Part shown: positions 34,167 to 36,940 of the stretch, piece by piece
How the letters are laid out: each line of letters starts with the position of its first letter
Numbering within the stretch: position 1 is the stretch's first letter
Assembly: GCA_018238625.1 (NCBI GenBank)
Contig: JABCSY010000024.1
Coordinates: 1-44,537, forward strand
Source of the DNA: Promethearchaeota archaeon
GTDB lineage: Archaea > Asgardarchaeota > Lokiarchaeia > Sigyniarchaeales > SOKP01
DNA length: 44,537 bases
Direction of reading: 5' to 3'
Notes under the pieces: generated by a model
What the model was told of the DNA's origin: nothing
Seen by the model: only the letters and a program-made list of their open reading frames with translations
The model's database searches: none
Translations under genes and position numbers: made by a program

Positions 34167-34622
34167 TTAAAAGATAGACCTAAAACGATCTTCGGTTTTT
34201 AACTTAAGATCTCCAATAATACCATCAATTCGACTTTCAAATTTCTTGAAGTATTTTTCTTTTTTGGAAAAAATATCATGAAAAGAATATCTATTAAGAA
34301 AATGCGAATTAATTTCTTCTAGATGTTTTTTAACGATCTCTGAGTCCGTTTCTTTTTCGGTAATAGCAAAAGAAATCAATGGTTGCTTATTTGATTCATC
34401 ATTGGGTAATGAAATTAATTCACAATAACAAACTAGTTTAAACGAGGCTAAAGAAATAACATTAATGTCATCCCCAAAGACTTCTGTTGTAAAACTTTCA
34501 AGAGCAGATAGAAATCCCGCTCTCAATTCTGGGTCTAACCCCACTCCAGTATCTGAATCGTAATATCTTATGTTTAGGATATTACGTATGCCTAAATTGA
34601 TACCAAGTTCTAAAATAGCCAT
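34167..34622 (-). CDS. Stand-alone longin-like domain protein
   Basis: LDPELRAGFLSALESFTTEVFGDDINVISLASFKL; HFLNRY...FKKFESRID. Confidence 0.65.
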   Translation of the reverse strand: MAILELGINLGIRNILNIRYYDSDTGVGLDPELRAGFLSALESFTTEVFGDDINVISLASFKLVCYCELISLPNDESNKQPLISFAITEKETDSEIVKKHLEEINSHFLNRYSFHDIFSKKEKYFKKFESRIDGIIGDLKLKTEDRFRSIF

Positions 34623-34748
34623 ATTTTTAAAGATTTCTTAATTTTAAAGTTTAGGACAAAATTTAATTCTAAGCTTATTAGGTCGTAGATATATTAATAA
34701 TTTAACTTAAATTTTTTGATTCAGTTTCTAAAAGATTTTTTCGTTTAT

Positions 34749-36092
34749 CACTTTCGCAAAAGAAAACACATCCCCTTAGGGTTGTGATGAATTTTGCCTT
34801 AATCATTAAAAATTATACCTCTCTTTCTTTAAATACGAAATAATCCGTGCTTAATTAATGCAACTCGTTCGACAAGTTCAATTCAAACATTCGAAATTAT
34901 TGGACGAAATTACTTTTCTTTCAAAAAACTTGTTTAACGTCGCCACCTATACAGTTCGACAACGATTCTTCATGGATCGTCATTGGATTAGATATAACGA
35001 GTTATGGAAATTGCTAAAAACTCACGAATCGTATAGAAAACTACAAGAATCGTGCGGATCTCATCCGCCACAGCAAGTCCTTAAACAAGTAGATCGAAAC
35101 TTTAAGAGCTTTTTTAAAGCGATTAAAATGTGGAAAAAAGAACCGTTTAAATTTCAAGGAATGCCAAGGCTCCCACGTTACAAGCGTAAGAACGGTCGTA
35201 ATTTAGTCTATTTCACATCTTTACAATGTAGGTTGAAGGACAGTTTTGTTTTACTCACGAGAAAGATGGAAAGGTTAGGCTTTCCGAGAATTAAAACGGA
35301 TCTCGAAAGCGTGAAAGGAGTTCGCATCGTTCCTTTCGGGGATCGATATAACATCGAATTGATCTACGACTACGAGCCACGAGACTTGTACTTGAACGAG
35401 GATAACGTGTTAGGGATCGATTTAGGACTTAACAACATCGTAACTGCGTCAGATAACGTTGGAAACAACCCACTGATTATCAAAGGCGGTGTCGTGAAGT
35501 CGATCAATCAATTCTATAACAAGCAATTAGCCAAATACAAATCGTTCAGCAAGATTTGTAACGACGCCGAATTAACTAAGCGCATCTTGAAGCTTCATCG
35601 AAAGCGAAACAATAAAATTAGAGATTTTTTCCACAAAACTTCGAGAAAAGTAATCAATTACTGCATTTCTAACGATATAGGAACGATAGTCATCGGGTAT
35701 AACGAGGGTTGGAAGCAAAAGATCGCGATAGGGAAGAAAAACAATCAAAACTTCGTGTCAATACCTTTTCTAAAACTTGTTCGACAAATCGAATACAAAT
35801 CCGAGATGGTCGGAATTAAAGTAGTGAGAATCACCGAAGAATATACTTCGCAAACTTGCTCTTCGTGCGGAGTCGTTCGCAAGTCAAACCGCAAGTATCG
35901 CGGTCTATATGCGTGTAATGAGTGCGGGTTAGTATTAAATGCCGATGTGAACGCTTCAAGAAACATGATACAGAAAGGAGTCCCTGAGTCCAAGTGGTTA
36001 GGGGATAGAGGATGTTTGAACCATCCATTAGTGTTAAAAGTTTAACGCCTCTTAACCTACGAATCCAAGCCCTTTAGGGCGTGGTAGTTCAA
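34749..36092 (+). mobile_element. IS200/IS605-family tnpB-only (IS1341-type) element, 1344 bp
   Basis: Left hairpin CACATCCCCTTAGGGTTGTG (34767-34786) lies 18 nt after TTTAT. Right end GAAT-CCAAGCCCTTTAGGGCGTGG-TAGT-TCAA has the IS608-type GAAT guide and TCAA cleavage site. No tnpA, no TSD. Confidence 0.9.
34858..36045 (+). CDS. tnpB: RNA-guided endonuclease TnpB
   Basis: GIDLGL, IVIGYNEGWKQ, EEYTSQTCSSC...CNEC, NADVNAS. Confidence 0.95.
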   Translation: MQLVRQVQFKHSKLLDEITFLSKNLFNVATYTVRQRFFMDRHWIRYNELWKLLKTHESYRKLQESCGSHPPQQVLKQVDRNFKSFFKAIKMWKKEPFKFQGMPRLPRYKRKNGRNLVYFTSLQCRLKDSFVLLTRKMERLGFPRIKTDLESVKGVRIVPFGDRYNIELIYDYEPRDLYLNEDNVLGIDLGLNNIVTASDNVGNNPLIIKGGVVKSINQFYNKQLAKYKSFSKICNDAELTKRILKLHRKRNNKIRDFFHKTSRKVINYCISNDIGTIVIGYNEGWKQKIAIGKKNNQNFVSIPFLKLVRQIEYKSEMVGIKVVRITEEYTSQTCSSCGVVRKSNRKYRGLYACNECGLVLNADVNASRNMIQKGVPESKWLGDRGCLNHPLVLKV

Positions 36093-36112
36093 AACTGCTT
36101 TTTATACGCGTT
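35930..36112 (+). ncRNA. Predicted TnpB omega/reRNA; 5' end approximate, guide from 36093
   Basis: Stacked hairpins GGATG/CATCC, GTGTTAAA/TTTAACGC and GCCC-TTTA-GGGC overlap the tnpB 3' end and the right end. Confidence 0.6.
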
Positions 36113-36940
36113 AAACGTGTTTTGAAGCAAAAAACTAACAGTCATAGGGCCTACGCCTCCGGGGTTTGGAGTAATCCACGAACACTTTTCAAAAACGCCT
36201 TCAAAATCTACATCTCCAGATAACTTTCCATTTTCTCTCGAAATCCCTACATCGATAATTACTACGCCTTCTTTTACCTTTTCTTTAGTAATGAACTTTG
36301 ATTTTCCTATGGCAACAATTAAAATATCAGCTTTTTTAGTATACTCCCCTAAATTTTTTGTATACGAGTGACAGATTGTAACGGTAGCGTTTCTTTTTAA
36401 TAACATGAAGATTAAAGGTTTGCCAACTAAGTTAGAACGATTAATAATAACAACATGCTTACCCTGCATTTCTACGTTGTAATGTTCCAGAAGCGTAATA
36501 ATGCCTTTAGGAGTACAAGGTACAAAATCTTCGTTGTAATCGAACAATTTACCCCGATTTATAGGATGCAACCCGTCTACATCTTTTATCGGATCGATTT
36601 GCTCAATAAATTCAGAAGTGTAGAGTCGCAAATCTCTTGGCAATGGTAATTGTAGAAGTATTCCATGAACAGATTTGTCTTTATTTAGCTTCTCAATTTC
36701 ATCTAACAATTTACTTTTAGTTATATTTTTATCTAAATCGACCAATATAGACCCTATTCCAATTTCAGAGCATGTCTTCCTTTTAATGTTAATATACAAT
36801 TTTGAGGCGGGGTCGTCTCCAACTAAAACAGCAGCTAATCTAGGGTGGATTCCACTCGTTTTAATATAAGAAGTTATCTTATCTCTTAGTTCTAAATTTA
36901 ATTTTTGCGCTAGTTCTTTCCCATTTAATATTTTTCCCAT
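36089..36940 (-). CDS. folD: Bifunctional methylenetetrahydrofolate dehydrogenase/cyclohydrolase
   Basis: HGILLQLPLP, KDVDGLHP, PCTPKG, RSNLVGKP, TPNPGGVGPMT. Confidence 0.97.
   Translation of the reverse strand: MGKILNGKELAQKLNLELRDKITSYIKTSGIHPRLAAVLVGDDPASKLYINIKRKTCSEIGIGSILVDLDKNITKSKLLDEIEKLNKDKSVHGILLQLPLPRDLRLYTSEFIEQIDPIKDVDGLHPINRGKLFDYNEDFVPCTPKGIITLLEHYNVEMQGKHVVIINRSNLVGKPLIFMLLKRNATVTICHSYTKNLGEYTKKADILIVAIGKSKFITKEKVKEGVVIIDVGISRENGKLSGDVDFEGVFEKCSWITPNPGGVGPMTVSFLLQNTFNAYKKQF

Follow-up and report, generated by a model that had tools for sequence, protein, structure and literature searches.

A tnpB-only IS200/IS605 element supplies the stop codon of folD in a Promethearchaeota genome

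Scarless, duplication-free insertion 3' of a short motif defines the IS200/IS605 group of insertion sequences, as set out by Meers et al. (2023; PMC10055086). An archaeal TnpB of this group, SisTnpB1 of Sulfolobus islandicus, has the target-adjacent motif (TAM) TTTAA and cuts DNA, according to the respective preprint (bioRxiv 10.1101/2023.03.06.531077), and IStrons, which are of the IS605/IS607 type, are described in another preprint as lowering the cost to the interrupted gene by RNA self-splicing (bioRxiv 10.1101/2023.11.20.567912). Here, we describe a tnpB-only IS200/IS605 element at the end of the folD gene in contig JABCSY010000024.1 of a Promethearchaeota archaeon (assembly GCA_018238625.1; genome G000 below). 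The whole contig, 44,537 nucleotides in length and read on its forward strand, is referred to as the window. The element occupies positions 34749-36092 of the window (1,344 bp); it lies directly 3' of the pentanucleotide TTTAT (34744-34748) and terminates in GTTCAA, and the right flank begins with AACTGC at 36093.

The stop codon of folD lies inside this element. The gene, which encodes a bifunctional methylene-tetrahydrofolate dehydrogenase/cyclohydrolase (Pfam THF_DHG_CYH and THF_DHG_CYH_C, 228.6 and 124.4 bits, respectively), now ends AAG CAG TTT TGA (KKQF-TGA). Its TGA (36089-36091, read from the TCA of GTTCAA) belongs to the element and its last codon (36092-36094) spans the junction, so that the element supplies both the stop and the first base (plus-strand 36092) of the last-codon triplet. 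If TTTAT were joined directly to 36093, the gene would end ...CAG TTA TAA. FolD was found in 39 of the 41 genomes searched (own genome included), and the three closest proteins (G016, G020, and G008; 91-93% amino acid identity) end KKQL with the stop codon TAA, over which TTTAT lies on the opposite strand. The stop swap at folD is therefore confirmed: the stop has changed from TAA to TGA and the last residue from L to F, and the length of the protein has been kept. A preliminary description of this DNA had derived both this swap and the restored ending KQL from coordinates; its arithmetic is correct, and the relatives carry the ending that it restored. The insertion is absent from five readable relatives and therefore arose after the species split from them. 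The features of the locus, with the basis of each, are as follows.

34744..34748, plus strand: TAM or target pentanucleotide TTTAT, part of the flank and not of the element (junctions and empty orthologous sites).
34749..34857, plus strand: left end (read from the sequence; conserved among copies).
34828..34835, plus strand: TATA-box-like TTTAAATA, about 27 bases upstream of the ATG of tnpB (read from the sequence).
34858..36045, plus strand: tnpB, 395 amino acids, intact (Pfam, sequence matches to PDB chains, motifs, and dN/dS, the ratio of nonsynonymous to synonymous substitution rates).
35980..36092, plus strand: ωRNA-like scaffold of five helices over the end of tnpB and the right end (RNAalifold covariation).
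36061..36090, plus strand: right-end hairpin (last helix of the scaffold).
36087..36092, plus strand: right terminus GTTCAA, transposon-encoded (all 20 right ends of the genus set).
36093..36112, plus strand: predicted 20-nucleotide guide or target, antisense to the final codons in the folD mRNA (IS200/IS605 rule).
36089..36940, minus strand: folD, 283 amino acids (Pfam and orthologues in relatives).

The swap is very probably a passive consequence of a single-strand 'peel and paste' insertion 3' of a TTTAT that overlapped the folD stop. By the usual IS200/IS605 pathway, the tnpB-only element would have entered immediately 3' of the TTTAT opposite the folD TAA. On the gene strand the target would read A-TAA and the element end T-TGA in the same register: TTTAT and TTCAA both carry T-Y-A (Y, pyrimidine) before their last base, and TAA and TGA therefore fall in the same frame relative to the cut. 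The length of folD would be retained, with the last codon going from TTA to TTT (L to F) and the stop to TGA. It is already known that the left and right cleavage sites resemble each other in this branch of IS200/IS605, and the swap follows from that resemblance. Insertions of such low cost would survive, and the swap would be a by-product of the insertion rule and purifying selection. Mobilisation would need a TnpA acting in trans, and one is encoded elsewhere in the genome. If TnpB works here as in ISDra2 and ISGst, it would cut, together with the right-end RNA, the joint TTTAT + AACTGC that is left by excision.

The boundaries of the element were established from other copies. A DNA search of the own genome (4.29 Mb in 201 contigs) identified two further full copies, C175 (93% identity) and C156 (83%), whose matches to the query both start exactly at 34744 and stop exactly at 36092, as the preliminary description had placed the right boundary. 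Matches to the element were found by DNA search in 14 of the 42 genus genomes, own genome counted. These gave a genus set of 24 left-end rows, from which one (L076) that starts inside the element was dropped, and TTTAT directly precedes the left end in 22 of the remaining 23 junctions (in two with a 1-base shift of register); the sole exception, TTCAT, belongs to a tnpB-less remnant. Nine additional left ends from metagenome and genome contigs, read by eye after removal of one row that repeated the flank of another copy, comprise eight TTTAT and one TTTTT, which brings the total to 30 of 32 left junctions. The base preceding TTTAT is not conserved. GTTCAA ends all 20 right ends of the genus set (BLAST), and all their flanks differ. 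In total, about 50 junctions from related genomes and metagenomes agree on the boundaries, which cannot be due to chance because the copies of the own genome and the junctions of the genus set coincide in them with unrelated flanks.

That TTTAT is the target and not a part of the element is seen at a second filled site in genome G016, where a left flank ending AACGG-TTTAT is followed by the element and then by the end of a 364-amino acid gene of the histone deacetylase family. The orthologous site of G051 consists of exactly this left flank, TTTAT, and the right flank, with nothing gained or lost; since this empty site retains one TTTAT scarlessly, and TTTAT is single in the empty orthologous sites, the motif belongs to the target. 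The identification of TTTAT as the TAM in the preliminary description thus stands. The two ends of the element are unlike (the left starts CAC, the right finishes GTTCAA), and there are no inverted terminal repeats. Both ends contain subterminal hairpins: the right one is a helix of 12 pairs, 5 of which show compensatory changes, and the left one, read by eye from the sequence only, is an imperfect hairpin (34767-34786) with 8-base arms, a 4-base loop, and one T-T mismatch. We conclude that the element is a tnpB-only IS200/IS605 element (IS1341 type) with an ωRNA-like right end, similar to ISGst and ISDra2. In the left flanks of four other copies (L075, L066, L051, and L055), a divergent open reading frame (ORF) on the opposite strand starts 52-55 bases left of the left end. 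Insertion near promoters seems to be tolerated in these copies, and the similar distance may be a matter of chance.

Stop swaps were not confined to folD. Of the 20 copies in the genus set for which a right flank was available, 4 adjoin a long ORF on the opposite strand whose stop is the right-end TGA, and these genes encode FolD, the 364-amino acid deacetylase-family protein, a Mem_trans transporter (310 amino acids), and the C-terminal part of a class-I aminoacyl-tRNA synthetase, in which Pfam detects an anticodon-binding domain of the isoleucyl type. The sample was enlarged by means of a pattern built from the conserved positions of the right end. It matched 38 stretches in metagenome contigs, of which 8 chance matches without the hairpin were dropped, and 31 in genome contigs bearing the titles Promethearchaeota, Promethearchaeum, or uncultured archaeon, as well as two contigs titled Acidiferrales bacterium. 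The resulting 81 junction records contained 58 unique right flanks, and 53 remained after the removal of four junctions of a sister family and of L121, which occupies the same site as L072. Stop swaps were found in 7 of these 53 unique insertions, all of them at genes supported by Pfam; this is the outcome of the survey of insertion sites relative to stop codons that the preliminary description had proposed. The three added genes encode an Amidohydro_3 protein (538 amino acids), an MBL-fold protein (213 amino acids), and a PPIC-type peptidyl-prolyl isomerase (123 amino acids).

For 6 of the 7 swap genes, empty orthologues have TAA at the place of the swap. Besides L to F in FolD, the exchange has altered the last residue from Q to H in the deacetylase-family protein and from E to D in the amidohydrolase, and has kept the V of the transporter and the G of the isomerase; in the synthetase-like gene the motif lies one codon later, on a double TAA TAA, and one Y has been added. 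For the MBL-fold gene (L142), no orthologue was found among the 42 genomes at an E-value of 1e-50, and this swap has no empty-site control. At the C156 copy, the TGA also terminates a 68-amino acid ORF on the opposite strand; this ORF shares the geometry but has no Pfam match above the cut-off, and was not counted. At three other copies, a long opposite-strand ORF enters the right end in another frame (L084/L112, 265 amino acids; L164, 420; L135, 106). By their reading frames, the host proteins there would either gain a tail encoded by the element or be truncated, and not all insertions are therefore harmless.

The protein encoded by the element matches the Pfam families OrfB_IS605 (PF01385; 74 bits, cut-off 30.5) and Cas12f1-like_TNB (PF07282; 78 bits, cut-off 26.3), as well as solved Cas12f and TnpB chains of the PDB (E-values from 1.5e-20 to 1.5e-8), in agreement with its earlier description as a tnpB element. 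It contains the motifs GIDLG (D188), GYNEG (E283), and NADVNA (D363) and the CxxC pairs CSSC and CNEC, all within blocks aligned to a solved homologue. We take the three acidic residues to be the RuvC D-E-D triad and the cysteine pairs to be the zinc ribbon. Between the three tnpB copies of the own genome, dN/dS is 0.09-0.13, and the TnpB protein is therefore under purifying selection. The TATA-box-like TTTAAATA, similar motifs to which are present in two other copies (L051 and L140), is predicted from the general features of archaeal promoters to be a promoter that would give a leaderless tnpB mRNA.

There is no tnpA in the element, the gap between TAM and tnpB being only 109 bases. The genome encodes one Y1 transposase (PF01797, 128 bits), located on contig C142. 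The region concerned (C142, 1850-3700; L018) is the only autonomous IS605-type element of the genome, with a tnpA of 140 amino acids and a tnpB of 397 amino acids. Its tnpB is only 21% identical to that of the folD element; its right end finishes with GGTAGTTCAA after a similar hairpin, as does the folD element, and the left hairpin is similar as well. Presumably, the C142 TnpA is available in trans for the mobilisation of the folD element. Three more intact tnpB genes in the genome (contigs C135, C38, and C141), 48-51% identical, form a second subfamily. Derivatives of about 390 bp that lack tnpB were also found, on contig C96 of the own genome (L004, 1224-1619) and at L104, L128, and L121; they resemble palindrome-associated transposable elements (PATE) or miniature inverted-repeat transposable elements (MITE) and keep the left end and a right-end RNA scaffold of about 125 bases. 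At L121, a deletion derivative occupies the site at which another genome carries the full element (L072). A GC-rich sister family (L100, L109, L110, L151, and L155) has the right-end core and the GTTCAA terminus in common with the folD element. Two of its contigs are titled Acidiferrales bacterium, and related ends therefore occur in both bacteria and Asgard archaea.

The last ~113 bases of the element (35980-36092) are highly conserved in 33 aligned copies and are kept in the tnpB-less derivatives, in which the sequence upstream is either unrelated (L104 and L128) or deleted (L121). RNAalifold analysis of 30 copies yielded five helices with 33 pairs, 11 of which show compensatory changes. In this structure 96.7% of cells were paired, compared with 30-54% in slid controls, and its covariation score was reached by none of 500 shuffles; as alignment and structure derive from the same, related sequences, these figures support an ωRNA-like RNA and do not prove it. 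A search of 34600-36300 against Rfam returned no family for the right-end RNA, the only match being a chance one to a microRNA (E = 0.16). The scaffold, which overlaps the end of tnpB, is a predicted ωRNA, and its last helix coincides with the DNA hairpin at the right end on which TnpA would depend. Under the IS200/IS605 rule given in PMC10055086, the guide would be the 16-20 bases that follow 36092. Each of the corresponding 16- and 20-mers occurs only once in the genome, preceded there by GTTCAA and not by the TAM. Guide use and cleavage by this TnpB are likewise predicted by analogy.

The predicted guide is antisense to the 3' end of the folD mRNA, as the preliminary description had pointed out; this holds by geometry alone. 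Such complementarity to the last codons, together with the convergent orientation of tnpB and folD, could be taken to mean that TnpB and the ωRNA have been domesticated as regulators of folD, acting either through antisense pairing between the guide and the 3' end of the mRNA or as an RNA-guided roadblock. This is highly improbable, as the element exists in many mobile copies whose flanks are unrelated, its nuclease motifs are intact, the insertion is missing from the five relatives, and the geometry already follows from the rule of insertion.

At folD itself, the right breakpoint and the TAM are as predicted. The site of G016 reads TTTAT-AACTGC at the folD stop (window plus strand), and the same join is present in G050. 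In the relatives, however, 25 more bases lie between the TTTAT over the stop and the sequence that matches the left flank in the window, and this left-flank sequence itself ends in a second TTTAT, so that two copies of the motif stand 25 bases apart. When the 42 genus genomes were searched for the left flank, 0-30 free bases, and the right flank, the pattern was found in four, always with a gap of 25 and never of 0; G008 shares this long form apart from a single base difference. The empty-site check thus bore out the core join at the folD stop, but not the full empty allele that the preliminary description had predicted. Contigs from four sequencing runs (X11-X14) include two joints from about 34715 to 36093/36096. 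In those of run X14, the relatives' sequence ending in TTTAT stands directly before 36093 (loose ends), and a 538-base contig of run X11, possibly from the source sample, spans 34300-34760 with one difference and represents the filled allele.

Several points weigh against a direct insertion by peel and paste at the folD stop as the whole account. The exact empty allele (14-mer) was found in none of the 42 genus genomes, nor in the contigs of the four runs, although the latter absence is weak, as contigs drop rare variants. Every empty site (five relatives and the contigs of two runs) carries the 25 extra bases and the second TTTAT, and at least one extra deletion, either before or after the insertion, is therefore needed. 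The own genome also lacks about 21 bases further to the left. The ωRNA, its ends, and the guide are predictions, none of the sequencing runs found to contain the stretch being recorded as RNA, and the RuvC residues were placed by motifs and their expected positions. Finally, the element has no tnpA, and the TAM of the C142 element, judged by register from its single copy, looks like TTTAC rather than TTTAT.

The paired TTTAT motifs allow a different order of events, in which the element was inserted at the distal TTTAT, 25 bases past the folD stop, and a later deletion of 25 bases on its right side fused its end to folD. The fact that all empty sites have the two motifs 25 bases apart, the match of the window's left flank to the sequence left of the distal TTTAT, and the presence of another indel nearby in the own genome would all fit this order. 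However, the end of this deletion would have to fall exactly where the proximal TTTAT meets AACTGC, and its microhomology would amount to only 2 bases, whereas a left-side deletion between the two TTTAT repeats has 5. Furthermore, six other insertions have the same geometry, five of them with empty TAA orthologues, and at the histone deacetylase site, where both flanks are readable, the join is exact. The recurrence of this geometry with empty TAA orthologues means that direct insertion on stops is common in the element family. An insertion at the distal motif is accordingly quite improbable, and it is just as doubtful that folD was at first untouched and its swap a secondary accident. The simplest history would be an insertion at the stop-overlapping TTTAT, combined with a deletion between the two TTTAT repeats either before or after it; the proximal motif is thus the one presumably hit.

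In relatives (L021-L023), the stretch corresponding to the left flank (34700-34748) is surrounded by an 11-base inverted repeat, and the own genome lacks both of its arms owing to two distinct indels, one of about 21 bases and the other of about 25. A 151-amino acid ORF without a Pfam match (34167-34622, minus strand) is the downstream neighbour of folD in close relatives. An assembly chimera at the join was considered and ruled out, because this ORF adjoins folD in the relatives too.

Whether swaps are more frequent than the supply of suitable sites would predict was evaluated in genome G000 (GC content, 32%), in which ORFs of at least 100 amino acids were called (n = 3,523). Among its 41,993 TTTAT sites, the insertion point falls outside coding sequence in 11,654 and has the exact swap geometry in 449. 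When the class with the motif one codon later (65 sites) is included, swap geometry accounts for 4.25% of the tolerated TTTAT sites. The 7 swaps among 53 insertions exceed this expectation (P = 0.007; 6 of 52 without the discovery case, P = 0.022). When only insertions within 100 bases downstream of a convergent gene end are considered, swaps make up 7 of 13, where 21% would be expected (P = 0.0095; 6 of 12 without the discovery case, P = 0.025). We read stop codons that overlap the motif as a real, recurrent class of low-cost sites, for which an excess of 2.5-3-fold over site availability is possible. Purifying selection on the other insertions would also produce such an excess.

The preliminary description went further and proposed a safe-harbour strategy. 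In the full form of such a reading, the register shared by TAM and terminus would be an evolved device, and the element family would prefer, or have been selected for, the stops of convergent genes. Both comparisons above lend it some support, and the genes hit include folD and the isoleucyl-tRNA-synthetase-like gene. Nevertheless, the nulls rest on one genome with crude ORF-based gene calls and on tests chosen after the data had been seen, and the excess disappears under a stricter null that counts only about one in two intergenic TTTAT sites as tolerated (p = 8-10%; P = 0.13-0.42). Near gene ends, moreover, the motif lies by far most often as ATAAA on the stop (446 sites, compared with about 30 per neighbouring position), so that many swaps are expected without any preference. 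There is no visible flank preference beyond TTTAT, and 46 of the 53 copies lie elsewhere. Synonymous outcomes (3 of 6, one of them inferred, versus 29% expected from 132 of 449 sites) are too few to be distinguished from chance. The swap does recur, and the excess is modest and dependent on the null, with no sign that the register was selected for it. We regard an evolved device as unlikely. Similarly, there is only a small likelihood that the T-Y-A register of IS608-like elements is kept by selection with convergent-gene stops as near-neutral landing sites, or that the essential genes among those hit, by making imprecise loss costly, contribute to such a strategy. If it were true, TnpB elements in compact archaeal genomes would have evolved insertion at stops as a device for persistence, such insertions being more than chance survivors, and imprecise loss of the element at these sites would damage the host gene.

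Taken as the passive outcome of peel-and-paste insertion, the swap still demonstrates that the ends of IS200/IS605 elements can replace a host stop codon with the protein either unchanged or changed by at most one residue (substituted or added). It illustrates how, in gene-dense genomes, these elements can be accommodated at essential genes, folD or an aminoacyl-tRNA synthetase gene among them, and it presents a trap for annotation, as the stop codon of the host gene lies within a mobile element. The locus also specifies in full a testable Asgard TnpB system, made up of the TAM TTTAT, a scaffold about 115 bases long, and a predicted 20-base guide. In the main text of Meers et al. (PMC10055086) the term 'stop codon' does not occur, although its supplements may hold tables of insertion sites, and a literature search covering main texts without supplements found no paper on stop-codon replacement by IS200/IS605 ends.

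Like ISGst and ISDra2 as described in PMC10055086, the folD element has neither inverted terminal repeats nor a target duplication and stands directly 3' of a TAM of 5 bases. Further features in common are a right end that finishes in a conserved motif, subterminal hairpins, and a guide-RNA scaffold (predicted here) that runs from the end of tnpB into the right flank, as well as a scarless donor joint and the dependence of tnpB-only and gene-less PATE derivatives on TnpA in trans. It differs from them in its Asgard host, contigs with the same element family being titled Promethearchaeota, and in its TAM, TTTAT. IS608 of Helicobacter pylori has the target TTAC and the right end TCAA and carries tnpA, which the folD element does not. 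Its target and terminus both begin with T-Y-A and place a stop in the same register, so that a swap would be possible there as well. The preprint on SisTnpB1 (bioRxiv 10.1101/2023.03.06.531077) reports an AT-rich 5-base TAM and a prediction of TAM and ωRNA from alignments of the ends, as was done here; SisTnpB1 differs in one base of the TAM and in its archaeal phylum, and its cleavage of DNA has been shown experimentally, whereas that by the folD element is predicted. The mechanism of the element itself is already known, and the stop swap is documented here with empty-site controls. Compared with IStrons, as presented in bioRxiv 10.1101/2023.11.20.567912, the folD element keeps the gene whole at the DNA level by the sequence of its end, with no extra activity.

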